From: Podarcis cretensis
Taxonomy: Eukaryota
Reading direction: 5' to 3'
Assembly (NCBI GenBank): GCA_951804945.1
Contig: OX638156.1
Span: forward strand, 38,564,001 to 38,628,000
DNA length: 64,000 nt
The position numbers were made by a program, and so were the translations under genes. This document shows, one piece after another, positions 5,983 through 44,500 of this stretch. Numbering within the stretch: position 1 is the first letter of the stretch; every line of letters starts with the position of its first letter. The notes below the pieces were generated by a model. It saw only the letters and a program-made list of their open reading frames with translations, did not search any database and was not told the DNA's origin.

Positions 5983-8900
5983 GTGAGGAAGGGCGGGGGA
6001 AGGGCTCGGATCCTGTGGGGAGCTTCTCAGAGTGACCATGGGGCCTGAGAGAGTACGAAGGGCTGGGCGAGGGGAGCCCCTCGGAAACGGGGCTGAGCGT
6101 GGTGGGCCCCGCGGAGGAGGGAGAAGGTGCCTGTCGGAGCGAGGCAGCTGGGGTTTGTAAACAAGAGGCCTTTCGCGTTCCCTACCCTGGGGAAGCAAGG
6201 CTGTTAGGCTTCTCGGGCGCAGGTGGCTGTCAGAACGGAGGAGGAGACGGAGGAGGAGGAGGAGGAGGCGGGTCCTCGGGAGCCAGGGAGTGGATTCTGG
6301 GGTGGGTGAAGGGGGGCCTTTCGCAGGGGTTGTGGATTTTGTGAATCTTGCGGGGTGGGGTGGTGGAGGTACCTGTGGGTCATGCGTGTGGGTATGTGGA
6401 TGAGTGGAGGGGGTACCTGTCAGAGCAAGGAGGGTTGCTAAGCGAGGGAAGGAAGTGTGTGAGTGTGTGATGGTCATAGAAGGAGCATCTCAGAGCCAGG
6501 GGATGGATCATAGGGTGTGTGCGTGAAGGAGTGTCTGTCACAGTGGGGGAGTAGAGATCCTGGGGGAACACATGTCAGAATGGGGGTGGCGGCATGGAGC
6601 CTGCAGGGTTGGTCCTTGGAGCAGCAGATGGGTTCTGCGAGGATATGTGAAGGTGGTGTCTGGTGGAGCACATGCTGAATGCAGCTGGTATTTGTAAACA
6701 AGAGGACCCTCACATTTTTCTCCCTGTGTTCCTGAAGGGGAATGGGCTACACCACTGTCATAGTGTAGTAGCAGAGCAAATAGGCATAGGCAGGATTTTT
6801 TTGAGGGGGGGGTGTCTTTTTGTTAGGGGGGCAGAATAGAGTTACCTGCAGTACAAATGGTCAGTTAAGCATTTCTATTTATTTACTTGATGTAGTGGGG
6901 GGACAGCTGCCCCCTGCACCGCACCTGGCTATGCCCATGGTAGAGCATGTGTATTGTTGTGATAGAAATTACCCAGGGGCGTTTTGCTACTGGCGTGGGT
7001 CCAATTGCAACCACGTGGATGCCAGGTTGGCGACTAATATCTTCATCTGGCTGGCTTCAACAGCTTTCTTTAGCAGTAGCTCAGCAGAAGAGCTTGCTTA
7101 TTGCATTTATATCCCATCCTTTTCTCCAAGGAGTACATGGTTCACCCCTCTCCTACAGTGACCCTGTGAGGTAGGTTAAGAGGCTGTGACTGGCCCAAGG
7201 TCACCCAGTGAGCTTCATGACTGAGTGGGGATTTGAACCTTGATCTCCCAGGTCTTAGTCCAACACTCTAACCACACTGGCTTCCTTGAGTCCTCCTGCT
7301 ATGGTGCAGTTATATAAAATAAGTAGGCTTCAGAAAGGTTTAGAAAGGAGGTACCAGGTGGGGTTGAATCCTTGGTACACATTGTTGGCTCCTATTGGGG
7401 TCAATGTTGCAGTGGGGGAAGGGGGCTTCTCAGACCCAGGGAAAGGGATATTGAGTGTTTGTGAAGGGAAGCTACTGTCTGTGAGGAATGGATACTTCAG
7501 ATGGGGGCCTGTTGGAGTGGGAGTCAGATCCTGCAAAGTTGGTCCCTAACAGAGTGTATGCGAGAGGTGGATCTTGGGGGTGTGTGAGGTGAGCATCTGT
7601 CAGTGGGAGGGTTGATCTTCCAAGGAGGTTCCTGTTGGGGGGGATCATGAGGGAAGCAGATCCTGGAGGCAGCTGATATTTGTAAGCTGGCTTCTAGATA
7701 AACTCATGTGATAGGCGTGGGGCTTTAGTTTGGTGGTGGAGCTTGTGTTTTGCCTGCAGAGTAATTTGCTTGTTTCATGTGTTCTCTACCCAGCTCTCAG
7801 AGTAACTGTCAGAGCTGCCCCAAGGTCCCAGCTCACAGAGGACCAACGCCAGGTCGTCGTTATGTGCAAAAGTCTTTATTAAAGTTCAGTTTCCATTTCA
7901 AAGCCGTAGCGTGCAGCCCCTCGTCTTAGACCCTAGACCGCCGAAGCTCCGTCTGAGTCTCCGCCCCCTAGACACCAGTTTAAGACTCTAGCCTTACTCC
8001 ACCTCTTCCGTTGTTCTTTCCTCCTCTGGGTCCATCTGCCCGCCGGGGTGTTGCCCTTTCTGGACTCTTCTGATGCTGAAGAGTCCCCGGATTCTTCCCC
8101 CTGCCTCCGGCGTGCTTTAGGACCTGGCTCCCAATCCGAGCCCCCTGCTGTCCCGCGCGCCTGTACATTTGAACTTGGCGCGCGCGCTCACCCGGCCACC
8201 TTCCTCCTGACCGTTACACTGCTCCTGTCACTGCTTCCCCCTTCGGGGGGGCTAGCTGGATCTGACTTCCCCTCCGTTCCCTCACTCAGCGATAGGGGCG
8301 TGGTCAGCCCTGACTCATCTTCCCTCCCCACTGGAGGGGAAGCCTGCCCTGACACATGGGACTCTTCCCCCCCGCTACGCTCTGGTGGGGAAACTGGTCC
8401 CGATCTCCAGCTGCTGCCCTGAGAGTCGCTGCTGGCCCCTAGCTTCTGGTGCATCCCTCCCGGGACCCCCCTTGCCCTGGCCATCGGTGCCCCCTTCTGG
8501 GAATCTTCCGAATCGCTGGAGAAGCTCATGGAATCTCTCGTCTCACTGTCATACTCTCCTACGCTGCCCTTGGATTGTTCCCCTTCGCTCTCCTCTTCCT
8601 CTCTCCCCTGTGCCTCTGCTCCTGAGCCCCTGACAGTAACTTTAAGTTAAAAAAACAAAACTCCAGCCCCTGCCCTCAGAATTTACCATCTAAAGACTTC
8701 GCACCAAAAAGAAAGGGATGGGGAAGCAAGCCCAAATACCCATTTTGTACAAGGACCTGCTGGGATGGGAGATACTTGAGGGAGAGAAGATGCACTTCAC
8801 AGAATTGGGTACAAGGATGAGCATTTGTTGTAGGAATTTGTTGAGCTACACTTGGCTACAGAGTTGAACTTACAGAGCAATGTTCATGTTGATGGAAGGT

Positions 8901-20564: not shown

Positions 20565-23500
20565 GTGAGCGGGGCGGGGAGCCCCTCCTAGCTGGTGGGG
20601 AAACTGAGGTCGGGGGAGGGGGAGGGCTTCGGGGCAGTGGACCCCCATGGAGCAACTTTTTTGCGGCGGGCGGCTGCAGGGAGAGGCCAGCCCAGGTGCG
20701 GAGCAATGCACATAGCCTCTCCTGGCAATTTTAGGAAACCTGCATCTGACCCAGGTTTACCTCTGTCCTCCGTCACTCTCCGGTGTAACCAAGAAGTGGC
20801 GTCCAGGATGGAGGTCTGCGGCCAGGACCATGCGCGCATGCATAGCTCCTCCTGGCCTCGGTTGCCAAGAGTTAGGGAGCAAGTGCAGCCCCTTGGCCAG
20901 TAGCTCTCTTTCCCTTCTGGCGCAGGAGCAAATCCTTGTTTTCAAGGGAAAAGGCCGAAGGGCTACACGGGAAAGCGAGGACACTTCTGTGGGCAGAGCC
21001 CGTTTTCTGGCTCAGGCAGGCCTGCCGACAGCGGTGTTGCCAATTTCTGGCATTCATAGTTTAAAAGAAAACGGGGAAAGGAGCAGAGAGAGAAAAACGT
21101 TGCTGTTTCAGGGAATTGGCCCAGATGAATATACTTATCATGATAGTCCCCCCCCCCCCATTGTGATGTTCTTGAAGATAAAGCTTATGCTGGGTACTTT
21201 TTGAGTAGGGATTGTCTTTCGGTCACACCCTCGTGGCTGGTTGAGTTGTGTTAAAGTGAATCAATCCTGCTATTTCTATTCCAACAGAGGTAGACAGCTT
21301 GATCCTATAATTCAGGATTGGCAAAACTCCTTACCTGGCTGCCTCCTTACCTGGCTGCTTGCGACAAGAATCTCCTCTGTCCATGGAGGGAGGCTTTTGT
21401 AAATACAAGAGCCTTCTTTTTCTTTCACACACTGTGCCACAAATGACTAATATAGGTAGGTGTGTGTGCGGTCAGGCTAGTAACACTTGTGGCTTTTAAT
21501 CATAAGTCAACTACAGGTTCACTTTAGCAGCTGTAGAGCAAATAATAGTTTGCAATTTGAGATGCGTATGGGAAAAGTAATTGATCTCTTGCCATAGGGA
21601 GTATGGCATTTTGTGTTGGGTCATTTGTGGGTCTGTTTTCAATATCAGCATGTAATATGCCTATTCTTGAAGCAACTTTAGGTTGACAATCTGTTTCCAG
21701 CTTCAGACTAGCTAGCTTGGCAGGAATGCATGAATTCAGAGTTACTGCTGATAGAAATTGTTGTAAGTTTAGCTGGAGTTACTAGATTGTTACACAAGTT
21801 ATTGCTTGTAAACAGAAAAATTGGAACTGAGGAAGCTGCCTTATATTGAGTCAGATCATTGCTCTGTCTAGCTCAGTAGTGTCTACATTGACTGGCAGTG
21901 GGGTCTTGCAGGTTTTCATATAGAGGACATTTCCAGACCTACCTGGAGTTGCTGAGGACTGACCTTGCAAACTGTAGCACACAAAACAGATGCTTTACCA
22001 TTGCCTTATGGCCTGTCCTGTGTTTCTATGGTTCAATATAGGATGGTTATCTGTGTTTCTATGGTTCAATATAGGATGTACAAGTCTCAGAAATAACTTA
22101 ACTGCTCATTGTCATTCTTTGAGATACCTTCTCTGAATAGAAATTAACCAAGTTTATTTTAGGTCTCTGTCTGGCTATTTCTGTGTGTTTTCATAAGAAG
22201 TGGGGTAATTTTTAGGAAGCTCTAAGTTGGACATCCTGAGAACCCTAGATCCCAGTGCAACCTAAGTCAGTACAGGAGTGTTTCCCACAATCTTGTACAG
22301 TGGTACCTCAGGTTACAAATACTTCGGATTACAGACTCTGCTAACCCGGAAGTAGTATCTCTGGTTAAGAACTTTACCTCAGGATGAGAACAGAAATCAT
22401 GTGGTGGTGGCGCATAAACAGCGAGAGGCCCCATTAGATAAGTGGTACCTAAAGTTAAGAACGGACCTCCAGAACAAATTAAGTTCTTAACCAGAGGTAC
22501 CACTGTACTCAGATACACTGTCCCATCACATTAGAGCTACATTGGGCACTTCTGGCAATGCAACTGATTCTGGGAGAAGTCCAAGGAAGAGCATATCAGT
22601 TGAACCTTCCAACCTTGGTGAGAAAATGTGCATAGAAATTTGCTGCAAGCAGAAAAGGTTGCTGGTTGTGAGATTTTGGGGGGATATATTTTAAAAGTGA
22701 ACCCTCCACCAATATTTTAATGAAAGTATGTAAAACACTTATTTTGTGATTAAACTGTTTATAAACTTTTCTAAATAAATGACTGAAACATAGTTTGTTC
22801 TTTAAAGTGAGATTGTTTACTTATTTAAATTAAAAGATAAAGAGCCCTAACAGTCATCTGATGCTGTGACATTAACATTGGATTTGAATTTTTGAATTCA
22901 TTGTTTAGCATTGCATTTATAGATGGGTAAGTTCCTGCATTCAGAAAGTGTTTCACTTTCTGGCTGAGCCAAACTAAGTGAAGGCAATGTGAACGAATCA
23001 CCATTCCCACTCATTCCCTCTTTCCTTGGTTTGTGATATGCAGTATTGCAGGGGTCAGGAGTTCTGTGTCACATTTATGTATCCCTCCAACATCGTTCCT
23101 GGCTTGAACTTAAGCAATTAGACTGCATTGCAGGGTTGGATTGAGACACAGGAAGCATGCACAACCACTGATCTAATGGCCCAGCATACTGTTTTGATGG
23201 TGAGGAGTGGAAACAGGGTCCCATATTTGTCCCTCTGTGTGCAGGTGCTGTGCCTGAACAAGTATGAATTATGTCTGGATGGTTTCCTATCTCTTGGTGT
23301 CATTGCTTGGAGTGCAGTTCACAAACTGAACTTTGTGAGTTGACATTCATTGTCAGTATATCTTCAGCATGAACAAGCATAATGCAGAATGTGGTGTGTA
23401 TGCCTCTCTGGATTGTGGCCTATTTCTTACAATGTTTGTAGAGCTTTCAGGTATTTAAAGCACTTCACATTTATTAACTTGTAATCCTTACAACAACCTT

Positions 23501-26500
23501 GTAATATTACAGTATTAATGTTCTCTGTAAAGCAGATAGAGTGTGGTGGGGGTGTGAAGTAGGTGACTAAGGCTGAGAGACTGGCTTGTTTAAGGCCACC
23601 TAGTGAGGTTATTCCAGAGGAGAGAATTGAACTAGGGATATTTGATTACTGATAGCTCAGTCTCTTAGTCATTATGCCTAACTAATTGTAGCTGACACTT
23701 GTCGAGTATTTATTGTACAGGTGTGCCCTTTAGTTCTCTGTATGAATGTGCTTTAAGATGTAGCAGTATCAGAGAAGTAAGGTTTCATAAGCCACAGACA
23801 TAACACTAGTTCTCCACAGTCAAAACTCCTAGAGGGTGCTGCAGCCTTCATTGGAGGGGTGTGCAGAGTCAAAGTGCTTGCTCGTGTATGTCACAATATG
23901 TTATGTACTGATAATGGGTACATAATTTAGCTAAATAGACAATTTTGTTGCTAAATTAATACTGTGATTTGTTGATTATATTATAGGGATGTTCACACAC
24001 TCACCAGCAGCCACCTGCAATATAGAGATATACTCACCTTTCTTAAAGAATGGTTGCATGGGTTACTAAAATGTACTTGAAAAGTTTTGAATATTGTTAG
24101 ACACATGGAGTTACTACATCCACATGATCACACTGGGGATTTCAGATTCCTACATCTGAGTAATTGCCTTTCTTTTAAATTTACAATTTTCTGATTTACC
24201 TGTATATTCTACTGAATCAGTAATGCTTACTCCAGATTGGTGTTTATAGTTTGTAAAACATTGCAGCTTCAGTTTAGTAACATATTTTTGCAGTTTATAT
24301 TGTTCCCACTCTGTGCTACATTGTACAAAATTGTTTTATCATTTGTACAGCAATCCTATGCTGTATATACATGACTGTGTCTAAGGCCCATTGAACTAAC
24401 TGGGACTCCCAACTGGGTTGTGCTGTAATCATTTTAATTTCATACCCTTAATTTAAGGGGTGGGGACTAGGAACCCTTTTTCTATGACATAAAAAACATT
24501 TAAAATGTTACATTCCTTTCTCACTTTCTTGTCTTGTATCATCAGTTAAAAATCCAATAGGTAGTGTAGCAGTGAGAAATTAATGTAAGCAGACTTGAGT
24601 TGGAGATGTAGTGGTATGGCAGAAACCTATTAGTTCATTCAGGACATTGAGATATAGCTCTGATTTCTGTTGGATGATACTGCCTCTTCTATGGTTTACA
24701 AGAGCTTTTAGAGCGAATAAAGATACTGCTTGTTTGACAAGAGGTGACACTTCTGCTTGGATTCCTTGGAGGGCTGTCCTTCCCTTTTGCCTATTCCATT
24801 TAGAGCCTGGAGGTATAGATGCATTTGCATCCACTGTTAGAAACTGAGATATGAAAGCTAGGAGCTAAATGGCACCTTAAACCTAGGTTTTTGGCGCAAC
24901 AATGGAATGTCTAGGCACACTTTTTTAATAACAGTACAAAGCTGAAAATGAATGAACTGCAGCTAAAATCTTATATTCATTTTTCACATGGTCGAGTCCT
25001 CATCTGAAGACTGCAAAAAACAGCCATGCTTCCCCTGCCTGTCCCCCTAATATTCTTAAGAGGGTCTCTTCTCCAGTCTTTAGAGAGTGGCTGGAAGTGG
25101 GGAGGCAGAAAAAGGTCCTCCTTTCCTTCTACTCTGCAGTTTTAATCTGAAATCTTAGGAGCAGTACTGCACCCAGAGCTCAAAAATTGCTCATGCTAAT
25201 GAAATTCCATTTTGCAAAACGTATCTAGAACAATGGGAGTTTCGAACGCTGTTCGCATCATCAAATTCTGTTGAATTGGAATGTCACCCAGAGGGTTCAG
25301 TTTTTTAGCCTAAGCGTTTCTCATGCTGCTATCTGATTTGTGTGTGTTAAGAGCTGTCAAGTTGCTTTAAATTCAGCAGATAACCTAATATGTGTAATAT
25401 TTGTGATGGGTGTAGACTGGTTTTGACAACATCTGTTATCTTCATAGAGCCGCCATTCTGTGGTGTGCAGGATCATGCTTTGTCTGGAATTTGAAGTATT
25501 TGGATTGTCACATACTGACCTAGTTTATTTAGAAAATGTATAAGCCACTTAATCAAAGAGTGTTCTCTGGGTTTGGGTGTAATGTTCCTGGTCCAACAAA
25601 GTATAGCTTGCTGGAGTGGAAAAGAGCAACAAACTTAAATAAGTGCTTCCTTATCACAACCTCCAGTGGAGACTGTTTTGTTAAATCACAGTTTCTCCAT
25701 TACATTGCAACAGGAAGACTGGTTTTAACAAACCAGAAAAACTCTGTTTTGCAGCTGGGAATGAGAGAGGAGGAGATGGGGGAAGGAATGCTCTTGCTCA
25801 TTGCTTGTTCCAAGAACATGGACCAAAAAGTGTTAAGTGTGAGCTGGGTCAGTGTGCCTTTTGCTTGGATGCTGTCTTGTACCTTCTTGTGGAACAGAGT
25901 GCTTTTTTTGCCCACTTCTGCCAATAAGTAACAGAACCTTTCAGAAAGGTGCCCAGAAAATTTATTAGTCCATTAGAAACATTACCCATGCTATTGGCAT
26001 GTACCTCTGGACTGCAAAGCATCTTGAACAGTGAGTCTGGCATGTTTTGTCTTAAAGGAGTTGTACATATTTATTTGCACTGAGAAACAATTGTCCAAAG
26101 AGAAAGATAAAACAACAAGCTCAAATCATTTTTTTATTTTTTATTGATTACACTTTATAGCCCACCTTTCCCCCCAAGAAGTTCGTGGTACACATAGTTT
26201 TCCCTCCCCAACTTATCCACACAATAAATTTGTGAGGTAGGTTAGACTGAGATACAGTGACTGGCCCAAGGTCACCCAAAGAAATTCATGGCCGAGTAGG
26301 GATTTGAACTCTGGTCTCCCACGTCATAGTTCAACACTCTAACCATTATAATACACTTGCCCTTAAAAGAAGGCAGGTCCTTCTTTTAGGTCCCACTGCA
26401 TTCAGGTAAGTGTGGGGACTGCTGCCCCAGAGTAAGTCCTCAGTGAGACTTAACTTCTGAATAGACATATTATATATGTGTAAGTGTTGTTACTAGATGG

Positions 26501-29500
26501 ACAATGAACTGATGAAAGGTGAATGTGAAAATAGAATGTTAGTAAAATTTGCAAGTGTCACATAACTTCAAGAAAAGAGGTGAATATTTTGCAGTGATTC
26601 TCAGTTACGGTAGTTTAGCTTAAAGTAATTTGCAGTAACAAAGTTGTTGATGACAACAATTTGTAGGTCACTATTTGATCTTAGTTTAATGAAACTGCTG
26701 AGCCTGAAACCCTTGACCTCATTTGTGTCCATGAAGTTATGGGTAGAGTGGATGACTTGTAAATACCACCTTTATCCCAGAAGGGGATGGAGTAACAAAA
26801 CATCAGTGCTCAACAGGGTTCCTGTCCTTGGGTAGATTAGGAGCGGAGCATTGCATTCATGATAAATTAGCTTTGGTTTTGTCTTCTGTCCCCTGCCACT
26901 CTTCTCTGGGCTAAAATGTGCTATTATGCCTCTTGCATATTGCAATAACTTTTCTGGGTTTAAAAGTAAACCTACATATGTTGTTATTACAAATTGGAAT
27001 GTGACTGCTTTAATGAACTAACCAATTAAGTGTTGATCAAGACTTTTAAAGCATTAACATTGTAAAAATAACAAAGAAAATCATCAATGAGTGGATACTT
27101 ATGCTAATTACAAAAAACAAAGACTGTTGTTACTGCCTTCCTACATAACACTAAGCTACAGTTTGTTTAAGAGTTGTCTCATAGATGAGCAAACAAGTCA
27201 TAACTTGCTTTTCCAGAGCTTGGTTTATTTTCCTGCCACTGTTGCTTTTGTAGCTTGGTGAGTGTTTGGGGTTGGATGGCTAAACCAACCACGCAAAGTA
27301 GTTGACAGTTTTAAAAAATGGCTTATGATACAAAAAGAAATATGATACAAATGATACAAAAATGATATGATACAAATATGATACAATATGATACAAAAAG
27401 AAAAATAATGAGGAAGAAAGAAGAAAATAAGCAAATTCAAGCACCAGAGCTTTCATAATGGTACATAATGAAGTTTCATGCAGAGAGGTGGTATGTAGGA
27501 GACAGTTCAGGGGTGTGGGAGGTAGAGCCAAATGGCTGCTGATCCCAGCCTGGCTGTTGTGCCAAGATGGCATGTCTAAAAAAAGCTACATGGAAAACTT
27601 TATGTATGTATATGTTTAATAGGGGATTCCAGCAAGTGTTTGCACGTGTGCCTGGTGTTCTTGAATTGATATCGTGTTTAACTGTTCTTGAATTGATATC
27701 ATGTTTAACTGTTGTGTCATTGTAAAATGTTTTGAATGCCTTTATTCTTTTGCCTGTGCCTTTTGCAATAAGACAGGCATGATAACTTCCTGTCAGTATG
27801 AAAATTTAAGTGAGCAGATGGTGCCTGGAGATTTGCAGCAGTGTCACTAGAAGAGTTTCAGTCATTAAGCAGTTAGTATAGCTGTTTAACTCATTAGTTA
27901 AGGCTCATTAATGGGTAGTTGCCAATAAAAATGTAGTAAGCAGGTAGTTTACCTATTTCCAGCAGAGTCTGGACAAGATTCTCATGTTCACACTTGTATA
28001 GCTTGAGTAAGAAGCATGAACTGAAGCAAATAGGGATTGATGTACTCTGAGGATGTGTCTTAAGCCTTTGGAGGAAGGGAAGCTGATTAGAGTGGTCTTC
28101 TTCCCTAGGCCCCTGCACTGCAGTTTGATTAGTTAAGGTAGATAATCCCCACTCCTTCATCTCTCTAACCACAGGGTAATAGATTGCTGTGGTGATGAGT
28201 CATGCTTGTGTTTTAACTGCTCTTACTTGAATGCTCTGGCAGTTCTATTTCTTTTCACTTATCTAGTTTCAACTGTGTTAAAACTGTGTTTGCTTTCATG
28301 CTCTGAACGAATCTTCTAGAAAACTCATTGTACTTGTTTTTCCCCTCAGTATGTTGCAGGTTCCATGGAATCTGAGCTGAACAGATACTTCAGGGAAACG
28401 CAGTAAAAGTAACGGATTTGGATTCCACCTTTGTGCAGGAATTGTACAGAGAAATAGTGTTCTTCCTTAACCAAACTTTTATTAGGTGCATATGGTTTTT
28501 AGAACAGTTGTGCCTGTTAGAAATTACTCATATGCAGGCTGAGAACAAGTGGGATAAGAAAGGTTGTTTCTCAACATTCTGTGTCCTTGGTCTTCATGGC
28601 CTTCAGTGTGTTGGTGGTGAAGCTGAGTGAAGCTGATTCACTTTCTTGGGATAGGTGGTTGTGGTTGGAAGTGATCTCTATGTTCTTCCCAATCGTAACT
28701 CTGGCAAAGTAGGATTTGTTATGGCAGGGGTCCCCAGAATGTCTTTATTCATTTCTTTAGAAATTTTTATAGATTTCCTTAGAAGAATTTATATGGCTTA
28801 ATAAGAAAACTCTTAAGCTGCCAACATTGCCACTATTTTTGTATGTGCAAATGCTATGGGGTATCTGTTTAAAAAATGGTAGCTGTCACCTGCCTGACAT
28901 TGTGGCTTGGAGTTGGTGAGTAGGATATTTGCGGTTTTAGCAACAGCACAAGAGAACTACAGTGACAATGTTGAAGGTATAAGCAGTGTTCAAAATTAGC
29001 TAGGTGCTAGTTGCATTTTAAGACAGGCTGCTGGCCTTTTGTGAGGCAATGAAGATGTCCGGGTGCCAGGTTTGGTGCCTAACATCTCCATCTGGCTGGC
29101 TGGCATGAGCAATCAGTTGGTCTGCAGAGCAGCAAGCCTGCTGCACAAATCAGCTGATCTGTGGGGTAGCAGTGCCCCATAGATCACCTGGCTCACACAG
29201 CATAAAAGAGGCATACCTTTTGGTACTGTGAGCCAGGTGAATCTCCTCAGCTGGGCAGCTGCTCCAGCTCCTTAGCCTCCAGTGGCTCCACTTCATCTAG
29301 GAGGCTTGTATTCTCCTTGACTCCCTCTACTGCTGAATTGTCTGCTGGCACTAGGCTGCTTCCTGTTGTGCTGTTCTTGCTCAACAGAGGCTGCTTGGGC
29401 CTGGCATTGTTTGGGCAAGCCCTGCAGCAGACAGTTGCTCCTGGTGGTGGCAGGGGATGGCAGCAAAGGCAGCCAAGAAACCTTTTAGGGCTGTCGCCTG

Positions 29501-32500
29501 GAGCTCCACTGGCACTGTGGATGTGGAGCTGCTTATTCTGCTTCTCCAGCTGCTTCTCCAGCTCCTGCACTTGGGCATCCGGTTCACATTGGAGTTAATG
29601 TCCTTCATGGTGCCCCATGACTCTACCCAACCCCGTGACCCTCTCTGCTGCTTCCTTCTCGTTCCCCTATTCTTCCTCCCTCCCTTTCTCACCATTGCCT
29701 TCTGTACTTTTCTACTCCAACAGTTGCAGAGTTAAGGCTAGGGGGGAACTTGGTTTCAAATTGTTTGTTTTGCCTATTAGATCTGTTTTGTGACGTTGCA
29801 GGTGGAGCAGAGGCCTAGACCTTCCTTGAGGGATTTCTTGTAGATCTCTGTTTTCTCTTTGACCCAAAGCTTTATTCTCTTTCTTAGGTTAGATCTGGTA
29901 CGAAAACATTTACAGCGGTACCTCGGGTTAAGAACTTAATTTGTTCTGGAGGTCCGTTCTCAACCTGAAACTGTTCTTAACCTGAAGTACCACTTTAGCT
30001 AATGGGGCTTCCTGCTGCCGCCACACTGCCGCCGCACGATTTCTGTTCTCATCCTGAAGCAAAGTTCTTAACCCGAGGTGCTATTTCTGGGTTCTGTAAC
30101 CTGAAGTGTCAGTAACCCAAGGTGCCACTGTATTTGAACCAGAACAAAGAAGCAAGCAATTTTGGGCACATGGTGATCTTAAGTGGGTAGGCTTTTGCTG
30201 GCAGATGCTTAGCCTGTCTTGTGTCAAGTAAATATATATCTCCTATCTCAGATCTGGTGTTGAGCATACTTTGCAAGTTTCCATTTTAGTTTAAAGAAAA
30301 ATCTCCCTGCTATTTGATGTCCCTAAAGTCTATGGATCAACTTTTGTGAAACCCAAAGTTTCTGATCTTTTCAGAATTAAATACATATTGTTTTATAGAA
30401 AACATTTTAATGGAAACAAGCAATGCTGAAAAGTGTCCATATGATATGGAAATAACTCATTTTGTATTGATTATGTAAAGAGGGAGGAAAGGGCTATCTG
30501 AGATGAATGGGGAGGAGATTCTCACCTAATTTACATGTAGGATAACTGCTGGGTGTTCTGATCTGGGTTTCCTGATTCTGCCCTGTGCTGTGTTAATGTC
30601 CTTTGTGGAGAAATCCTCATATGTGTGAGAGCAAAGGTCCTGCTGCTTTTGTTCTGTGAGTCAGTTCATAGTTTTATGTTAGCACTGAGGCAGGAGGCAG
30701 AAAATTGTACCAGCTATTTCTGGAAGGTAGGATGAGGGGAGCAAGGAGTCCAGCTTAAAGATGGCATGAAATGTTGTATTTGTGTACTGTATGTGTGTTA
30801 AGCTTTAGTTCCACCAAAGAGAGGAAGAGAGATTCTCTCATAAAGTTAAGAGATATAATATATTTATTTGGGTATGTGTGTGACTCTGCAGGGTGGCATT
30901 GCATATTGGCGCCCTTACGCCTTAGGGAGAATAAATGGAACCAGGATGTAAACTGTTCTACCCTTTTGCATTAGCTTCTCATCATCAGAGCTATAATTTA
31001 TTGTTCACTGATCTGTGTCTTCAATTAACCAATATTGACACAGCTGAACCTTCCATTAAGGAATGAATATTCACCGAGAAGCTTGAATGTGGCAACTACT
31101 GGGCTAGTTTGGATTATCTCCATATCTCTAAGCCTGCACTGGCCCTGTTTAGCAGCTGTGTAACCAAACCAATGATCTGAACCATACTGTGATGCTCAAT
31201 CAAATGACAGATTTCTAATAGTACAGGTATAAGCCCATGCATTTACAGACAAATGTGTGTTTTGGGGGCTCATCTGCTGTAAACATTGGTTGGAAGAAAA
31301 ATATCAAAATATAGGCCTTATTATAGGGAAGGCGTCTGAGAGTGAGCAGTCATATTGGATGGTGCTGCTCATGTTCTTGTGGAAGGACACAATCTTCTTC
31401 TGAAGCTTAGGTGGGCATCCTATCTTGTTGAGCAGTGTGAAGAGTCCTTTTTGGCTGACGAGGTCAAAGACCTTTGTCAGGTATATGAAGACTATATGCA
31501 AGGGCATCTCTATTTTCAGCATTTTTCCTGCAGCTGGTGCAGTAAGAAAATCATGTCAAAGCCCCATTGTGACTTTGGATAGTCCCTAGTATGATGATGT
31601 GTGGAATAATGCTGTTTGCCCATATACATGAAGAACGAATTCAGAGTGTAGGTGCAAATGGCAGCTAGAATTAGGGTGTGGAATGCAGGACCTGGAAAAT
31701 GGGTACAAACTATAGGTGGGATTTATTTATTTTTTTGGTGATTCCTTGTGTGCCTGTGCACAGTCAAAAACCTTTGAGTGTTGGATTGCAATTCTTGAAC
31801 TGTTTGATCTATTAATATGTCTAACCCAATATGCTGTCGTGTGTTGTGCTGTTGCCTCCAGATGCAAAATGGACATTGTGGCCTTTTCACTATTATTTTG
31901 CTCTTAAAGACTTTCTAAAGACATCTTTTTTAAAAAAGGCAAATGAGAATAAATTAAATGCCAGCATCTGTATTGTATTTGTAGAAGCACTTTGGTGTCC
32001 ATCTAAGTAAGTTTCCAAATGAGAGTACCTTTGGGAAATGTGAAGGTTAAGTCTCATAGGAAGCTCCTTGATCTCAGTCTTGTCCATACTGACTGGCAGC
32101 AGCAATATTTCAGACCAGGAGTTTTCCCAGACCTACCATATAATAATGGGGAAAAAATGTTTTCACCTTTGATGCACAGTGGAGAGCATACTTGACTGTA
32201 GACAGATTGCTCTCATGTATAAACATGCAGCCACCAACAGTAAACCTCAAACAGTGATCCTCAAACTTTGATTATATAAATGACAACCGGGGGGGAGGGG
32301 GGAGTGCATCATGGATTACTTCAAACTGATGCAAAAGTAATACATGTTGCAAACTGAACAAGTGCATAGATGCTTTCAACATTACTGCCATAACTTTCAA
32401 CATTACTGCCATTGTGGTCAGAACAACAAACCTGTCAAATGTTAATGTTACCGTTGCCTTTGGCTTACTAATGACATTGATATTCTGACCACAATAATTT

Positions 32501-35500
32501 CACATGCTCTTGAAGAAGGAATGCAAAATGCAGTCAATTAGGAAACCTGCAAAGGTTGAGCAGGCAGAACAGTGCAATACTGAGTTGGTCTATGTACAGG
32601 GATTTTATAACTCACAGCTAATCTTAATGATATATGTGGTTGTTTGGATTTGAGAGTTTTTGTTTGAGGAATATAAGTGATATGATCATGTATCCTCACA
32701 ATTCCAGCTAATGAATGAGTTGAGAATCCAAGTATCTTCCAAAGTGAAAGTATTGACTACTAATGTCTCTCCTTTTTTGCTGAAGGACCTTTTGTTGAGT
32801 GTGTGGTGCAGGTTGTCATGACTATTTGGGCACTATTGAGTGATTGATGGATCCACTGACTTCTGTACAAAGTGTGCTGTGCAGAGGTGTTGAACAGGAC
32901 AAGATCGGTCATTTCTGAGTTAGTTAGATATATTGACAGTTTCTCCAGTAAGATGGCAGCTGACAGGCGTGATATGCAAGCACTTGTTAAGACATAGCTG
33001 CTACTTACTTGACAAATTTGTGGTTACTGTGCTCAGCAGAACTCAGCAAGAGGCTTCCCCCTTGTGTTGGCTTAAATTTATTAAACATTTATACACAGTT
33101 AAATAATATTTGTATTTTGAAAAGCAGTTCACAAACTAGGATAACAGTGAAACTCATAACATGCAATCTATTAGCAAGATGAAGGCAGCACAGGAGCAAA
33201 GTCATATAATGATCAAAGGCCAGTAGAAGCAAAAGTGCTAGTTAGCAGGGAAGATATTGTGTGGTGTTTTCTTGGCAGAGGATCCACAAAATTGGGTCTG
33301 CAACAGGGGAGGTCCTACTTCTAGTGGATGTTAGCCTCGTGCAGTGGAATTCATTAGAATATCTTATGTATTGGTGGATTTGTATGGGAGAAGATGTTCT
33401 CTGACAAAATCAGATTAAATCCAATTGACAGCTAGTGCTAATGTTTCAAAACAGGTTATATATGTGCACCTGGATCTACATGTGAATATCTGTCTGTACC
33501 TGCTAACATGCAGGCTGCCACTAGCTAATGTTTCTAAATCATTTTGAAAAAGCAGCTCTGGTACTGGCCAGCTCTTCTATCTTTTTAGCAGAATTACGGT
33601 AGATGCTAATGGCTTTGGGTTTTCTCTCTTTCCCTGTAGCACTGTGGCTGGTTTAGCTTGATTGGGCCATCTAGAATAGTTTGCTTTGTATGTCTCTTTC
33701 TGCACAATTCATGCTCTCCAATTATGCTGTGGGTTGCCAATAGAGTTTAATAGACTTCAGCTGCCTGTTGGTTCCTGCATGATTATTCTTTGTAGTTCAG
33801 CGTGCTGGGGTTGTCTTGGATCTGCACTATGATGTTGATCAGGACTGCTGCTCATTGGCCAAAGACTCTGGGTTGATTGAAGGAAGGAGTCCAGATAGTA
33901 TACTTGCATGCTTTCAGTTCCACTGACTGACAACTGCTGTGTGCTGAACCCATGGGGTTCATATTTAAAACACAGTAAGAGTAAATGTATGTAACTAATG
34001 TCAAGCCAAGAAGTATATCTTACTGGTTAGGGGGTAGTATTAGGGGGCAAGAGGGAGGGAGCTGCTTGGCATCCATGTTGTTGTATCTCCTGATATTCTA
34101 ACCAGAATAGAATATAGAATTGTAGATTTGGAAGGGCTCATGGGGCTCATGTAATCCAGCTGCTTGCAATGCAGGGATCTTTTGCCCAACATGGTGCTTT
34201 AACCCTGTCTCATGCTCTACCAACTGAACTATCATAGCATAGTCCTTTGGGATTCCTGCTGAGTGAGCTCTTTTTAAAAGTTCTGTTCACTTTTTTAAAA
34301 ATGAAGCAAATGGCTTATCTCAAAGCAGATACAGATGTTGCAGTTCTTAGTAGGAGGGAGCCATTCCAGGTGGACTTGTACAATGAAAATGCTGACCGAG
34401 GAAAAAAAATTCCTCCCTCTAGCTCAAATGTATGAAAAATCTCGTTTCATAGCAAGACTTTGCAAAGGAAAGCCAGAGCAAGACATTACTAAAAGCTAAA
34501 GCATAATTAGTTATGCTCAGTGTAACAGCCGTGAAAACTGTGCTGGGGACACTTTTCAACTTCAGTCTTCTTGCTTGCATGAGTCTACTCTGTTCCTCCT
34601 ACTAAAGGAGTGTCAGTGCTAATGCTGGGGCTGATGGGAGTTGTAGTCCAAATATCTGAGGGTACCAAGCAGACAAAGACCGGTCTATGCTTAAATGAAA
34701 TGATCTGGTAGGGCTTTGAGACCAGTAAAAGGTGAACAGGAACTTCAGTTGGAATTTCCAGTATTTGCGGATATTTGAAGAGTAGCTAGTTCTAAGGTCT
34801 CTAAAACAGTAGTTATTGCTGTAAATAGATGGTAGGGAGCAATCAGTGGGATATAAGTATATGTTATAGTCTGTCTTTCCTTGTGCAGTCTAAGGCAGTT
34901 AACACAATAATAAAATGCCACAAACAAAAAACACCATTAACAATGAACCACTTAGAATAGCTCAATTGGGAGTGTGGCGCTAATTATGCTGCGGTTGCAG
35001 GTTTGATCCCTGAAAGGGCAGCTGCATATTCCTGCATTGCAGGGGGTTGGGCTAGATGAACTTCGGGGTCTCCTCCAACTCTATGATTCTAAAAAATGGC
35101 AGCAATAATAATGGAATAGATTTGTACGAGTATAATAAGGCTAAGCTGTACGACCCATCCTTGGGAAAAGGTATTGACACAGCAGCAGAAGGCTGATGAG
35201 AGCTCCCTAGGCAGGGAGTTCTGAGTCTAGGCACAACAACAAAGAAATGTGGACTTGGAGCAGACAAGAGGGTCCCTCTGTTGATGATCTTAATGAGCCA
35301 GGCAGGCTCACATATGGAGAGGAGGTCCTTCAGATATCTTGCTCATAAATCAGAAGACTTTAAAGGTCACACATAACCAGCATTTTCAGTTAGCCTCGAA
35401 ACAAATAAGAGAGCTGGTGCAGCAGTTTCAACAGTGAGGTTAATCAGCTACTTGGCTGCCATGTTTTGAACAAGCTACAGCTGCTGGACACTTTCAAAAG

Positions 35501-38500
35501 CAGTCCCACATACAATGTATTTTCTTTGCATGCAGACCACCAATACAACGGTCCATTAATTTCAATGTGTTTACCCTGAATATTATTTTGTAAGGTTTAA
35601 AAACCAAATTCTAGTTATTTTTTAAATAGCCCATTCAAGTCTGAAATCGGCCTTAATAGTAGTTAATGGGTGTTGAGAAGGTACTGAGATGAGAGTAAGC
35701 GTCAAAGTTTTAAAAGTATGGGCAATCTACTTCCACCATCTGCTTTTACAAGGGATGATTATTGTTGTGCCATCTAAGGGACAACCATGCCTCTACCCAC
35801 TACTTCATTAGTGTTCCAGTAGTGTAAGGTGCTCACAAACAAATTAGTTGGGTTGTTCTTGGCATTTAATGAAATGTGAACCCTTTTAGACATAGGCAAG
35901 GCAAGTGTTGCTTCATCATTGTGAGATTTTCTAGAATCCTGTGGCTTCTGGCCACATGAAGTCTCAGCTGAGGGTCCTTCTGGGACTTCCACCAGAAGGT
36001 TGCCAAGCTGTTATTGCATTACCTTGTGCTCTGCTTCCTTTGTGGCCTTGGCTGAATTTTGGGGGGCAATTTGGACAATGACTTTTTGTTGGAAGTGCCT
36101 TGTCAGTCACTTGGACGTGGGTAGCTTGCGTCAAAGTCTCTTTTCTAATTAAACTTTGCTTTTTTAAAATATTTGATTTAGGCTGGCTTTTAAACTAATT
36201 AATTTTAAAAATAAAGTCTGGTGGCATCTTAAAGGCTAATGGAATAATAAAAGCTTTCATGAACAATCTACCAACTGAGGATAACATTTCACACATGTGC
36301 TGGAGCGGGCCATGGCCCGCAAAAGCTTCTGCCACATAGATTCTGTTGGTCTTTGCAATGCCACAATAGACAAACACATCTGCCTTTTGATAATCTGTCA
36401 CTATGATTAATTTAACGTAGGCTTAATGAATGCAACAGCTCAATGACTGCATCTTTTGGGTGATCTTGAAGGAAGCGGACCACGAGAACTTAGTAGCAAG
36501 CAAGCAAGCAAGCAAGCTGCTACTTGTTGCTGGAAGGGATAAGTATTCTTCCTTTTCAACAAATTTACCAAAACGTTACCTATTCGTAATAGGGCATAAA
36601 GGTTGACAGCCTGTCCCCAGAAGTGCCCTAACCCATAAAAGTATGCCAAAATACAGTCATACCTCCGTTTACATAACACCCTGGTTACGTAAACTTCGGG
36701 ATGCATGCGCGGCAAACCCGGAAGTATTTTACCGGGTTTTGCCGCATGCGCAGAAGCAACCCTCAGGTTGCGGAACATCAGGATTCGACTGGACCTCCGG
36801 AATGGATCCTGTCCGCAACCGGAGGTACCACTGCATCTTGTGTAAATTAATATGCCTGTTTATTCTAGTTGGGGGTTTGTTTGGACAGGGACGCGGGTAG
36901 CGCTGTGGGTTAAACCACAGAGCCTAGGACTTGCCGATCAGAAGGTCGGTGGTTCGAATCCCCACGATGGGTTGAGCTCCCGTTGCTCGGTCCCTGCTCC
37001 TGCCAACCTAGCAGTTAGAAAGCACATCCAGCTGCAAGTATATAAATAAGAACCGCTCCGGCAGGAAGGTAAACAGCGTTTCCATGCGCTGCTCTGGTTC
37101 GCCAGAAGTGGCTTAGTCATGCTGGCCACATGACCCTGAAGCTGTACGCTGGCTCCCTTGGCCAATAAAGTGAGATGAGCGCCACAACCCCAGAGTCGGT
37201 CACGACTGGGCCTAATGGTCAGGGGTCTCTTTACCTTTACCTAATGCATGAGACATTCTAAATTTCAAATAAAATAATTCAGCCATCTGTATTAAGGAAG
37301 ATGAACTATGATTCCAGTTGAACGCTGCCAACTTCTGTTATTTTTATTTATCAGAAGGAAAGAAGACAGTTTCTAATTTTGAATGTGTAGGTCATAGAAT
37401 CATAGGGTTGGAAGGGACCACAAGGGTTTTCTAATCCAACCACCTGCAATGCAGGAATCTTTTGCCCAATGTGGAGCTTGAACCCATTATCCTGAGATAT
37501 CCATGCTCTACCAGCTGAGCTATCCTGGGTTATGTGAAACATTTTTATCCTGCTGTTCAGCCAAAAAGGTTTCTAGAGCTGCTTATAGATCTGTAAAAAA
37601 GACACATTTACAGTCTAAAAGGTCTGGTGCTAGAAAAAAAAAATTACGTGGAGGAATGTTAGGAAGACTGAAGCTCAAGTTCAGGGGTGACGAACCTTTT
37701 TCATCCAGAGAGACACATTCCCTAGGGGATATATGCCAGTGGTGGGTAGAATCAGAGGCAAAAGTGGGCATATCAATGGGTTTTTGTATCATAGGGAACA
37801 GCACAAAAGCCACCCACTCTTGCATTTCTCAGCAAAACTCATTGGTGAGCCATAATGCTTTAGAACAGGGAAGTCCCAACAGGTTGATCACGATCTACTT
37901 GTAGATCCCCAGGAGGTTTTGGTCAATCGTGAATCCGGTCCTGGCCCCTCGCCCTGCCCTCCATTGTTGCACAGAATGGAAGACCTGAACCCCCCAAAAA
38001 GGGATTTGACCACTGCCAGTTTTTAATTCTGTGAGTAGATAGCAGTCTCTGGGGACTTGGCCACCACTGTTTTAGAGAAACAATGTGAGTTCATGATTCC
38101 TTCTTGAGACTATTGCTATGTGACTTCAGCAAAGTTACTAGGATCAGTAAGCATGCATTGCTTAGGGGCTTGAAGATTCATCCAAGTTGCATCTCAGTCA
38201 GTGTAAAATCAGTAGAGGACATTTGGCTTCATTCTTCCTTGCCCTTGCTTTTCTTGAGGGAAATCCCAACATTTTTTAACAAAATTCGGGAGGGGGCACT
38301 AAAATTTGTTTATGGCCTCTGCTTTGTCTTCTTGTCCCCCTTTTCCTTGAGTGTTACAGTTCAAATAACCTAAATCCCCAGCTGTGCATACCATGATGGT
38401 GATGGACATTTTAGGAAGCAAATTTGACGGCATCTTTTATTGGGATCCAGGAAAAATCCATTGTGGCTTGCTCTCATTATGAATATAGGGCAATCTTTAT

Positions 38501-41500
38501 TGCAGTTCAAGGCTACAGGAGCAGGTCCCACTCACTAGATCAGCATTGCTCAAACTTTGCATACCTGGAGCATAAATCTTTTATTAGAATTAAAACTGGA
38601 AGCACATTTACATTCCCAAAAAGTATAAGAACTAACTAAATCAGTTAGAATAAAGGCAGTTCGTAATCTTAAAGTATGCTGATGTTTAATGCTTTGCCAG
38701 AAGAAGTTTTTATTTGACCAAGAAAATGATATTGTCACAGGAAGTCAAAGTTGAAGAAAAGATTTTGGAAGATAAAAGGGGAAAAATATTTACTTTCATT
38801 ATTATCATTTTGGGTGTGGGTGTCTGCACATACGTGTGTTTTTGTATGGAATGTTTGGGAAGAAATAAGACGGTAAATAACAAATAACAAACTAAATATT
38901 GATGTATGTGGTTTTTATATCTTGATTGTATTTGGTGGTAGTGTGGTTGTATTGTTTTTTTGTGGCATAGAATCATTCAATAAAAATTATTTTAAAAAAG
39001 AAAAAAAGAAAATGACATTGTCTTCAACGCAATCCAAATTTCAATGCCAGTAATGTTTGCCAGCTTAATTGTCATGTTCAATCAGAAACAGAAATTAAGC
39101 GGGCATTTTAGCAGCTTCATTTACATGTCCCTTGTGAAGAAAACATGAGCTGGTGTTTAGACTAACTCACCTTAACTTGGCAGGGCTGGAAACATTCTGG
39201 GTCCTTGGTTGCTCATGCCCTTCCACTGCTGATGCGGATGACTATAAATTTTAAATTTGCTCCTAGACCACTGAACAAGATCTTAGGGCTATATATAGGT
39301 ATCTGTTCCATTGTTAAAATTTATTGCTGGTTTGGGGTATATGGCCAGTCGAGATGTATGAACAAAATTATGCTGATATTTTAAAAAAGAAAAAGCTTAG
39401 CTTGGCCGTGTATCCTAGTAGACTAGTAGACAGTGTTAGATACTGAGATAGGAATGCTAGGAGTCATGTGGCTACTGGGACCTAGGTTGTGGGCGCCAAA
39501 ACAAAATGTCTAGGTGCCATTTTTTGATGTTGTTGCCCTGCTACCAATCCAGGCAGCCCTGCAAAAAAACCCAAAAAATGCAGGGAGAATCGGGGTTGCA
39601 GGGTAGCATGGCAGCAAAAGATGCATTTTTTGCTATCGCTCTACTCCGCTAAACACCTGATTCACCTGGCTGCGTGACAGCAAAATAAAGACACATCCTT
39701 TGCTGTTGCACTGATGGGCAAATCTGGTGTTTGGTGGGGGTACGCTGTGCAGAAAAAGACGTGCATCTTTTGCTGCCGCTGTGCCCAGCAGATCAGCTGA
39801 CTGCACCTAGGCAGGTGGAGATGTTAGGCGCCAAAGGTGGCTCCTGGACATCTTCATTCAGTTGCAAAAGGCTGGGTAATTTCGAACACTGCTAGCAGAT
39901 GAGAAGGCACATGGCTAAAATGCTTTGTTGCTGCCTTGCTTGGAAGAAGCAAAAAACAATTCAGTAGGACCACTGTGGATTAGAGCAGCCCTCTTTTTGT
40001 ACACTCTTTGTGCTAAATAGGCTTATGGCAAACTGTTTTCAGAGAAGTGGACTCCTTTGTCATTTAAAAATACCACATCCTGTTTGCTGGGATATGGATC
40101 TCATTGAAAGACTATATAAAGCTTGTCTCTTTCCACCCACTGTGTAGACTGTAGAAAATGAAATGGTCTTCTCCTTTTTTCTTCCCCCACAGAGCCTTAG
40201 CCAGTGTAATAAAATAGTGTATTACTTTTAGCTATAGTGATATTGCTCAATAGTGATACTGATATTTATACTTAAGCTTTTACTGTTTGTAAGTTGTTAT
40301 GGATGACCTCTGCCTGCAAATGTGTCATATATATCTTCATTTGTTTTTTGTTGATACAGAAAGGGATTGGAGCCTGTTTCCTGGTGAGGGTACTAGGAGG
40401 ATAAGCAATGAGACAAAAATATTGTGCATTGAGGCACCAAACATAAAACATCACTACTTGTGTGATTGTTTGCTTATTTTATTTAAAAATCATGTTATTA
40501 CTGTTATTTTGGGCTCACTTTTCAGACCCACAATTACTGTCGGCCAAAGATAACATTTTTTAAAAAAATCAGGCCTTGCCATCTGGCTTAGAAACTAAAA
40601 AGATAAAAGACACACAAAGAAGGTAGTGGAGAGAAAAGGTAGAGAAAGGAGAACAAATTAATTACAAAGCAGGCACTTTTATCCAGCTTGGGTGGGGCAG
40701 GTCTTCCCTGGCTTGAAAGCAGCCGGTGGCTCCTGACCCTTTGGCTGTTGGATGGGGCCATGAGAGTGTCCTTTGCCCTTTGCTAACTTCTCCAGTCCCA
40801 GGGCAAGAAGCTGTTGGAGCTGCTCTTTCTCTGGCTGACATTTAGGGCCAGGTTCCTCTTCCCCTTGTCAAGATCCTTTCTGGGAACTGGGGGTACAGTC
40901 TCTGAGTGGCCCTCGGTCCTGTGGCTGGTAGCAGAGGCATGAGTGTGCTTCCATTCACCTCTGCAGCTACAGTGCATAAATATCCTGGAGGGCTAGAGAA
41001 GAATTCTTACAATCCAGGATGTGACCTGAGTCTCTTGGTGAAAATTACACAAGGGTCAGGGTGTTCCAAGATATTGCTGCTGGGTCTCGCCCACTGAGGC
41101 AAATACTGATATCACATGGCTGCTTTGCAAGAAGTAACAAGCAGCTGTGAAGGCACAGTGGTTGAACTCAACCTGAAGGACCTTTGCCAAGGAAGCTCAG
41201 AGAACAAGCAACCCAGTTCAGGTTGAGGGGAAATGCAGAGAGAGGCTCACTGAAGCCTGTGCTGCTCCCATTGTGAAGCTGACGCCTGTGCATCTACAGT
41301 TTTGCAGAATCAAGGCTGTTGTGGAATAGCAGTCAGCTTTCTGACTAGGAGCCAGAATGAGTTCCACCGGAGCTAGCAGCAAGGTGACTTGGGGCACGGG
41401 GAGCTATGAGGCTGGAGGAACTGAGTAGTTTTTCTGGCCTTTTGATTAGGGATGGGTACAACTATCAACATTTCATAAATATATGGAGTCATTTGTGCAC

Positions 41501-44500
41501 ATGATGCTTCATAGTGTTATAAACAAAGAAGTCCCTACCCACCAAAAGCTAGTGAATGTGAACAGATGAGCATAGTTAATCTAAACATATTACAGTGGTA
41601 CCTCTGGTTGTGAATGGGATCCATTCCGGAGCCCCGTTCGCAACCTGAAAGGAACGCAACCCACGTCTGTGCATCTGCATATGCGCGGGTCGCTATTTGC
41701 AGCTTCTGTGCATACGCGTGACGTCATTTTGTGCGTCTGTGCATGTGCGAGTGGCGAAACCCGGAAGTAATCCTTTTCTGGTACTTCCGGGTTGCCGCAG
41801 GATGCAACCTGAAAAAACATCATGAAGCAAATGTCACAAGAGGTATCACTGTACAAAAAAGATTGGTTTTGCAGAAGGATTTGAAGGGGTAATGGTGTAA
41901 ATATGGCACTTTGTGATGTGCAAGCAGGGTGTTAAGTGGAAAAGTAGCAGCCAGAGGAGTTCTGATGGAAGTTCTGGTTGAGCAGAGACTTTTATGGCTG
42001 TGAGTGGTAGTTTTCAGGCAGGCCTGGGTGGAGGGCAATTAATACAGCCTCTTTTTATTCCGTTCCACTCTGTCTGGGCGGAGACTTGATAACTTCTGGA
42101 CTTTTGCTCCAAAGGGAGCAAAATAAAATTCATGAGGGTTTTGTTAGCACTTTTCTTCAAAATTGTAATTCCTAATTGTGAACTGTGACCCATGGACAGG
42201 ATAAAAAAATTCTGGATGGCCTATGATCTGAAGAGGTCATGAGAAATATTTCATGAATTAAATTCTACTTGCTTTAGTTTGATGGAACCTCTAGGGTGCC
42301 TTATAAATCTCTGGCTTGTCTACACTTCATTGCTTTATGAAATAACACTATTGCAAAAGCAATACAAGACCACTGTTCCAAAAAAGCAAAACATCCTATG
42401 ACTGCTGCCTTTCAGTTGAGGCCATTTCCCTGGGCAGCAGAGATTGATTAGATTAGATAAATTTGCCTTTAATCTGTGAGTTGACAATCTCTTGTGGTCT
42501 GATTTCATCATTTATTTAATAATGCACATTATTCTGAAACAATAGTTTGTGCCTGTTCGTGTGGAAGGAATACAGTGCAACATGACCTGCTCAGAATTAA
42601 TGTCCCTTTCTTTCTTTTTCCAGCCGGACAATGAAATCTCATCAGACTGCAACCACGTAAGTGTGCTTTTTTTCTGTAGGGCTGGCACTTGCTTCTTTAT
42701 TGATTCAGTGATTTATATTCTGACTTTTTCAAGGTGGCTTAGAATAAATATAACATTTAAAACCAATATCTTTAAAAAAACCTTAAAAGAGCAGCACCTC
42801 ACAACTTATAATTAGACAATTATAGAAGCCATATGCCAAAGAGAAAAATACAGTTTAAAATCCTAATAAAACCAGATATTTAAAGCCCTTTTAAAGAAAA
42901 CAGGGAGGGAGCTGTAAGTGGCATTTATTATTACTTTGAAACATTTGCTTCTGGCAAATTGGCTTCTTTCAGGGATCCTAGGCCAACTCCTTTTAAGTAG
43001 TAAAGGCTCCTGTTTGTTTATTTCTCTGTGATCTATATAGACAATTTAGATTTTTTTGTGACCATCTTGATAGGAACATAAGTACTAAATCCAGTCAAGT
43101 AGGATAGTATGATGTTTGGGCTTATTTATGTGCAGAAGAATGCCTTAATTAAAATGATACTATTCAGTGGCACCCCAGCTTGTTAAACTGGTGCTGATAT
43201 TACAATCTTTTTGGTGCAAAGTTAAGATTTCCTTTTTTGCCCAGGCATTTTAAAGTGACTTCATCTGTCTTAGGTCTCATTTTTGCATTTTAGCTGCTGC
43301 CCTTTTAGTTTTTACTTTAGAGTGGATTATATTTCCCTGTTGTTATATTTTAATATTGTTATACATCACCCTTTAGATGAAGAATGGTTAACTTAAAAAA
43401 TAAATAAAGTAAAGTAAAAAGTGGACTGGAGGACATTCGGTTAATAGGATGACTCTTTCAATGAATTGGGTAGACAGGGCATTTTAAGTCTCTTCCCTCC
43501 TGTTCCACTCATCTACCCGAAACAGCTATTCACCGACACATATCTCTACCTATATCTATATCCCTGGGGTACCAGGCATGCTTACCAGGGTCTGTTTTTC
43601 GTTTTGGACAATGAGGCACATCAGAGATGGTGGCAGCTTTATGATACATGGTTTATTTACACATATATACAATCTTAGCCTAGATGGAGGGAGTTCAGAG
43701 CATTCACATCCCAAGACAGTCCTGTTCATTCCATTACTGCAGCCTTGAGTTCAAAGAGCTCCCAAACATTGTGTCTGACCCTTCCTTCATTATAAAACAG
43801 ACTGTCATCCTTTTTTTTTTTGCGCTCCCCCTCCCCCAAGCTTGTAAAACAGACATCTTTTTCCTGTTCACTTCTAACAGGCAAACTGTAATCCTAAACC
43901 AAAACTATTGGTCTTTTGTCTTACTAATGATCCCCTCCTGTTTGTGGCTGGCACAGCTTTTGCTTTGCTGATGGCCAATCTTGATGGGTCACGACTGTCT
44001 TTGTTTCTTAAAGATGATTCCTTGATCAGGATAAAATCAAGTTTAGCATGTATTTTTACACTGCTAAATTCAGTGTCAGGCACCTTCTGTTAATTCTTCA
44101 AATATTGGTTGAATTCTAACATTCTAGCCTATAACAATCAAAATACGCATACACACACAAACTGAGGGGTACAGATAGGTTATTTAACTTTCTCTGCAGT
44201 GGAATGCTCTCATGGCATGGCATGGAGAAGACTGATTGGCCATGGGTGCTGTCATAAGCACAGAATCTCAAGTTCCACTAATTATGGCTCTGTTTGTTTT
44301 GAGATTCTTCATGATTATGAGCCATAGAAGTAAGCTCTCGTTTGATTTTTTTAAAAAATGAGATTTACACACCACATGCTTCCCTAAGTTCTGTATTCTC
44401 CATATGTCAGAGCATCAGTATATTAATGTGTTTCTGAAAATCACATGAAAAGTGCTGTGCAGGAAATGCGTTGGTTGGCTTGTGTTCACATAGATTTAAA

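Follow-up and report, generated by a model that had tools for sequence, protein, structure and literature searches.

Amplified capture of host gene pieces by cut-and-paste elements is common in plants and has rarely been documented in vertebrates. The survey of Tan et al. 2021 lists 370 Pack-TIRs, in which host sequence lies inside both ends of one terminal inverted repeat (TIR) element, in 100 animal genomes, with four multicopy families among them and 0 for the one lizard included (anoCar2) (PMC8277862). Pack-hAT-N8_XT of Xenopus tropicalis, described in the same paper, carries 291 bp from CAPSL's 5' untranslated region (UTR) in three copies, and the FoSTeST model is set out there for capture by template switching (PMC8277862). 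The stretch of Podarcis cretensis DNA analysed here (64,000 nucleotides, positions 38,564,001 to 38,628,000 of contig OX638156.1 in GCA_951804945.1; hereafter the window) contains, in intron 1 of GLG1, a piece of SLAIN2 exon 1 joined to the right end of a hAT element (Table 1). This locus is very probably a one-ended, decaying copy of a non-autonomous hAT family that carries SLAIN2 exon 1 at 18 loci or more and is likely to descend from a single capture followed by cut-and-paste spread. The SLAIN2-hAT family is a multicopy Pack-hAT.

One junction at several loci

The junction in which SLAIN2 codon 156 gives way to a hAT motif and hairpin is common to the window and three other loci (L048, L050 and L056), and the seven 8-bp target site duplications (TSDs) recognised in the family all differ. 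Because the same junction stands at several loci with different TSDs, the locus is attributed to transposon capture of a host exon, the first of two origins proposed in the initial annotation, which had foreseen further copies of the junction as its sign. Genome searches score best candidates only, so that the copy number is a lower bound: 25 candidate places were obtained besides the parent gene, and 18, on 13 contigs, were kept as having pieces of SLAIN2 exon 1. The cargo adjoins hAT ends at 17 of the 18. Typing with profiles of the left end, of the two right-end types (A and B) and of the cargo found both ends at 10 loci, one end at 7 (the window included) and none at 1 (L051); host sequence lies inside both ends of one TIR element, as in a Pack-TIR, at the 10 two-ended loci. 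The 8 bp on either side match at 7 or 8 positions in seven of these ten, and equally in both (2/2) empty copies of the family in the window. Complete copies have CAGTG/CAGCG-type termini on both sides, with short terminal inverted repeats; the window copy has the right terminus alone, its TIR lying at 28984. Where flanks of the copies were compared, they share common repeats alone.

At all loci the cargo is confined to about c.-295 (weakly c.-323) through c.468, or some 0.8 kb. The protein of exon 2 and beyond and 4 kb of the 3' UTR region have no match in the window or the 17 other loci, and the same exon 2+ protein query gives 7 stretches at the parent as a positive control. Intron sequence, too, was found at no copy. 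Joined exons are absent from these loci, as in a Pack-TIR that is not a retroduplicate, and the marks of a processed pseudogene made by L1 (spliced exon junctions, 3' bias and a poly(A) tail) are not found. The presence of the junction at four loci, with seven distinct TSDs in the family, is that of a multicopy Pack-TIR.

The parent gene and the window copy

A search of the same genome with window positions 29235-29760 gave as its best match a GC-rich exon at G000:C9:61848479 (E 2.8e-31), on a contig other than that of the window. This parent exon 1 (G000:C9:61848517) has a frame of 161 residues that runs up to a GT donor (c.482), and exons of the SLAIN family (PF15301) lie downstream at C9:61859975-61882890. 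Since the exon-1 peptide is 94-96% identical to the SLAIN2 proteins of lacertids (Podarcis, Zootoca and Lacerta), the cargo is SLAIN2, the identity first assigned to it; Pfam has no family in the exon-1 peptide or in the window frame. The parent shows no minus-strand match to the cargo profile, and its GCC repeats give short self-matches. Within the 30 kb examined, the family end nearest to the parent lies about 18 kb upstream and belongs to an empty member, the parent being unlinked to the element; this member was rejected as a sign of local capture, and is uninformative because the window alone has two such elements in 64 kb.

The genome-wide SLAIN family scan found only three intron-containing SLAIN genes. 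Besides those on C9 and C4 there is a third, compact one at G000:C19:30928843-30942174. The gene on C4 is, by its position, presumably SLAIN1, the name we assign to it; L014, being exon 1 of this paralogue, was dropped from the candidates.

The window cargo comprises 5' UTR, the ATG at 29608 and a coding sequence with a frameshift after codon 8, internal deletions and a stop at the Cys154 codon, its minus-strand peptides (MKDINSNVN, QELEKQLEKQNKQL, LLDEVEPL and ELEQL) being split over two frames. Pairwise alignment to the parent gives 74% identity overall and 83% outside CpG. The start codon, peptides and frameshift had been read correctly in the initial annotation, as had the location in GLG1 intron 1, which the exons on either side bear out; the purine-rich leader described there is present and is better named SLAIN2 5' UTR, homologous to the parent from c.-114 (29691).

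The hAT sequence stands directly at the 3' end of the cargo, and, as had been noticed, homology to the empty copy at 39431-39891 extends to GATTCACCTGGCT (29243-29231), a 13/13 match to 39659-39671. The junction lies at c.467/468, 14 nt before the splice donor at c.482, and not at the exon 1/2 boundary where it had been placed. The GAG GAG...TGG reading, with its EE..W-L motif, proves to be out of frame: in frame, the junction reads TGA GGA GAT, and TCACCTGGCT is hAT sequence. A microhomology join had been proposed on these grounds; the overlap where the template was switched does not exceed 1-2 nt, which is no proof of mechanism, and an imperfect likeness (7 of 8) of the parent exon's end to the hAT motif, lying a few bases further on, is indistinguishable from chance. 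The arms of the hairpin that follows the junction are also found in L048 and L056. The window copy is a one-ended, decaying member of the SLAIN2-carrying family, and by itself is not enclosed by two ends. In place of the local event first envisaged, it belongs, in truncated form, to a family that has transposed and whose master likely had an inverted cargo pair; the copy is now most likely inert.

Table 1. Features of the window around the SLAIN2-carrying hAT copy and related elements
Feature	Position	Strand	Basis or remark
Decayed SLAIN2 exon 1 copy (c.-114 to c.467)	29242..29691	-	Pairwise alignment to parent
Right end of non-autonomous hAT element (type A)	28984..29241	-	Right-end profile match E 1.1e-38; homologous to 39659-39891
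Hairpin of hAT subterminal repeats, beginning directly after the SLAIN2 junction	29183..29238	-	Folding of 95-nt stretch, -40.5 kcal/mol
8 bases beside right TIR (expected TSD half)	28976..28983	+	No left-TIR partner in window
GLG1 intron 1, host of the copy in antisense orientation	20567..42623 (about)	+	Exon 1 open reading frame and donor, exon 2, Cys_rich_FGFR exons downstream
Empty hAT miniature inverted-repeat transposable element (MITE), same family, type A right end, TSD 7/8	39431..39891	+	CAG termini; without SLAIN2 cargo
Another empty hAT MITE, with a right end of type B and a TSD of 7/8	24832..25251	+	Profile and end scans
High-copy MITE, unrelated	29911..30132	.	Contig depth very high; loose ends at both 29911 and 30132

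Mirror-image cargo

Cargo occurs in both orientations in at least eight copies (L048, L050, L053, L055, L058, L059, L060 and L061), the antisense arm preceding the sense arm in all eight and the reverse order being found in none; L049 and L064 are weak further cases. The junction faces the left end in L056 and the right end in the window, L048 and L050. L053, L055, L058 and L061 retain long inverted arms that are 65-74% identical, and these four of the five two-orientation copies that were folded have z-scores of -13.2, -11.2, -7.5 and -4.2 (20 shuffles each), as against -1.6 in the window copy (20 shuffles). The opposed cargo pairs suggest a master element with head-to-head duplicated cargo, of which copies with a single arm or a single end would be deletion products; this is the simplest reading.

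Decay and age

CpG sites have been heavily lost in the copies that were aligned: 42 of 345 parent CpGs are kept across seven of them, and 251 now read TG, CA or TA. Of 44 parent CpGs the window copy has 0 left, with a CpG observed/expected ratio of 0.09 vs 0.96 in the parent, whose CpG island looks intact by sequence. This loss would fit long methylation of the copies, which differ from the parent by 17-24% outside CpG.

Contigs of three other organisms, the well-covered ones, bridge the window junction in the same shortened form, the insertion being present in all three; a single contig piece of 1,540 bases spans the TIR, the junction and the upstream flank with 55 differing letters. Because the shortened form is shared by these organisms, the insertion and the loss of the left half at the window site are old. 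The copies also contain 15 nt that are lacking in the parent and in all five lacertid proteins compared and that agree in length with Rhineura and Elgaria (33 vs 28 residues), and they share with lacertids a Gly at codon 155 that is found, among 15 proteins, in lacertids only. On account of these two characters there is moderate support, in an indel-prone region, for placing the capture on the stem of the lacertids, earlier than the Lacertini crown, which would put it before about 38 million years ago (crown dated at 37.6 million years, range 15-47; PMC6733905).

Origin of the family

We infer that the subterminal hairpin of a hAT element halted a replication fork or gap-repair end, and that the stalled end may have switched template to the open, GC-rich 5' region of SLAIN2, copied it and returned, in the manner of FoSTeST. 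A fold-back would then have duplicated the cargo into a mirror pair, in which the antisense arm follows the left end and the sense arm leads up to the right end, and transposase acting in trans would have moved the mirror-pair element. Copies would subsequently have been methylated, and deletions would have removed an arm, an end or the centre from them, the window copy retaining the sense arm and the right end alone.

Several observations weigh against this account. The arrival of the window copy itself by transposition is deduced from the shared junction, with neither a left end nor a TSD pair: as in the initial annotation, neither a partner left end nor a matching TSD came to light when the window was scanned in full with profiles and motifs, and an exact match to the flanking 8-mer at 31233 was rejected as the TSD partner because no left TIR follows it. 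In three of the 10 copies with both ends no TSD can be recognised, the flanks matching at 2-4 of 8 positions. No autonomous partner was found among the best 30 of the 69 loci in the genome that match the hAT transposase domain (PF05699), 0 of the 30 having ends of this family within 1.5 kb. L060 folds no better than its shuffles (z -1.0, 20 shuffles). Since the cargo is confined to exon 1 or its close surroundings, either a DNA or an RNA template would fit. In a tree of seven copies the window copy branches off first, with the other six grouped at 89% bootstrap, and at diagnostic sites it goes with the parent five times and with the other copies six times; it might predate the palindrome, or be the founder site.

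Compatible with single capture and spread, and rather unlikely, is the possibility that the window locus is indeed the founder, where a resident hAT captured the exon by gap repair, the other copies descending from it and the left half being deleted later. In addition to the early branching, the window copy has lost its CpGs completely, the ATG and first codons survive, of the seven aligned copies, in it and L048 only (the ATG region being lost in the other five), and its insertion is fixed in the three other organisms. However, its cargo begins at c.-114 whereas other copies reach about c.-295, so that a founder must have been cut back, and the parent is on another contig whereas the single-copy gap-filling cases described by Tan et al. 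are mostly local (PMC8277862).

Several independent captures by different hAT subfamilies, or a cargo that flips between internal inverted repeats, would account for the association of the cargo with both right ends, A and B, and for its two orientations without one capture and a mirror duplication. Such histories are improbable: the copies share changes that the parent lacks, such as a missing ATG region in five of the seven aligned, the junctions of left and right arms are identical, and the two orientations stand in a fixed order inside single elements. The second origin put forward in the initial annotation, a full SLAIN2 retrocopy fused to a neighbouring hAT by deletion, would explain why the window copy has no left TIR or TSD pair, but it is very improbable indeed. 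Remnants of exon 2 and beyond, of the 3' UTR or of poly(A) are absent from the window and the 17 loci, the genome-wide scan found no processed SLAIN copy, and the same junction occurs beside hAT ends at three other loci, with distinct TSDs in the family; a longer spliced retrocopy was to be sought in related lizards, and all three other organisms have the same short form. Segmental duplication or Helitron-type capture, which the patchwork, rearranged cargo and L051, the copy lacking a hAT end, might recall, is hardly credible where CAG-terminal inverted repeats mark the limit of homology, the 8-bp duplications differ and the compared flanks have common repeats alone in common.

Further observations on the family and the window

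Among the remaining candidates, L022, L027 and L062 were dropped as GC-rich low-complexity matches, and L066-L068 as pattern-only matches with neither cargo nor ends. An apparent second cargo in type-B copies was rejected as mostly part of the type-B end, since the empty element has the same sequence. About 70 nt with a GTAAG donor-like motif are nevertheless common to the type-B copies (L053:4680-4760, L058, L059, L061 and L063) and absent from the empty type-B element; this stretch may be a second captured exon end, for which no parent was found. In L056 an empty hAT of the same family is inserted into the SLAIN2 cargo (L056:5297-6586, G000:C3:120.12 Mb; TSD 8/8 by eye), and carries an 836-bp young repeat that is also found in SLAIN2 intron 1 at 92% identity. 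L060 (G000:C19:30976.5 kb) lies about 35 kb from the third SLAIN paralogue (C19:30.93-30.94 Mb), probably by chance, its cargo being of SLAIN2 type. At L065 (G000:C22:189801-195800), on a small contig of 214 kb, two pieces of cargo are separated by about 1.9 kb, possibly a tandem duplication. Some of the PF05699 matches, for instance at C2:125.36 Mb, C8:5.67 Mb and C10:63.1 Mb, have open frames of 626-1170 residues and represent intact or domesticated hAT transposases, unlinked to the family.

Within the window, positions 6961-7062 match the same hAT right end weakly (E 7e-7) and represent a further degraded family member. A repeat at 7937-8646, with an acidic, serine-rich open frame of 150-280 codons, is also present twice at the parent locus (L040, in SLAIN2 intron 1, and L044). 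The unrelated high-copy MITE, which we take to be Tc1/mariner-like, lies 220 bp beyond the 5' end of the window cargo.

Comparison with known gene-capturing elements

A report of a SLAIN2-carrying hAT family was not found in the literature, Repbase/Dfam and subscription journals lying outside the search; SLAIN is absent from the 12 supplementary files of Tan et al. that were searched, and the terms 'inverted duplication' and 'hairpin' have 0 occurrences in the main text of that paper (PMC8277862). Like Pack-hAT-N8_XT as described there, the SLAIN2 family is a non-autonomous hAT that carries a 5' gene piece of a distant, unlinked, GC-rich parent on several chromosomes with distinct TSDs; unlike it, the family has about 0.8 kb of cargo including 156 codons, occupies at least 18 loci, and is old, decayed and mirror-duplicated (PMC8277862). 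In Ssk-FB4 of Drosophila melanogaster, too, capture was followed by recurrent transposition, the copy nearest the parent is read as the founder and the breakpoint overlap is 2 bp; Ssk-FB4 itself is young and polymorphic, comprises almost an entire gene and is translated, whereas the SLAIN2 family is fixed, fragmentary and frameshifted (PMC8277862).

By analogy with plant Pack-MULEs and other gene-capturing elements, the captured exon fragments could yield small RNAs that match the donor gene (Muyle et al., bioRxiv 10.1101/777037). The plant elements belong to a context of RNA-directed DNA methylation (bioRxiv 10.1101/777037), whereas the CpG island of the SLAIN2 parent looks intact by sequence, with an observed/expected ratio of 0.96. 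It is a long shot that the mirror-duplicated master acted as a mobile hairpin against SLAIN2, that read-through from host promoters yielded long double-stranded RNA corresponding to the 5' UTR and first exon, with small RNAs from some copies (L055 and L058) still tuning SLAIN2, and that lacertid hATs are a vertebrate counterpart of Pack-MULEs that repeatedly takes first exons from CpG islands and establishes silencing cross-talk with their donor genes.

The family keeps a readable series of capture, mirror duplication, deletion and exchange of ends, and its copies preserve an older state of lacertid SLAIN2. It offers a test case for the origin of multicopy Pack-TIRs and for a possible feedback of captured first exons on the parent gene. 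By the tests applied to Pack-TIRs the SLAIN2 family is one of them, with more copies and longer cargo than the published hAT example and with mirror duplication in addition.

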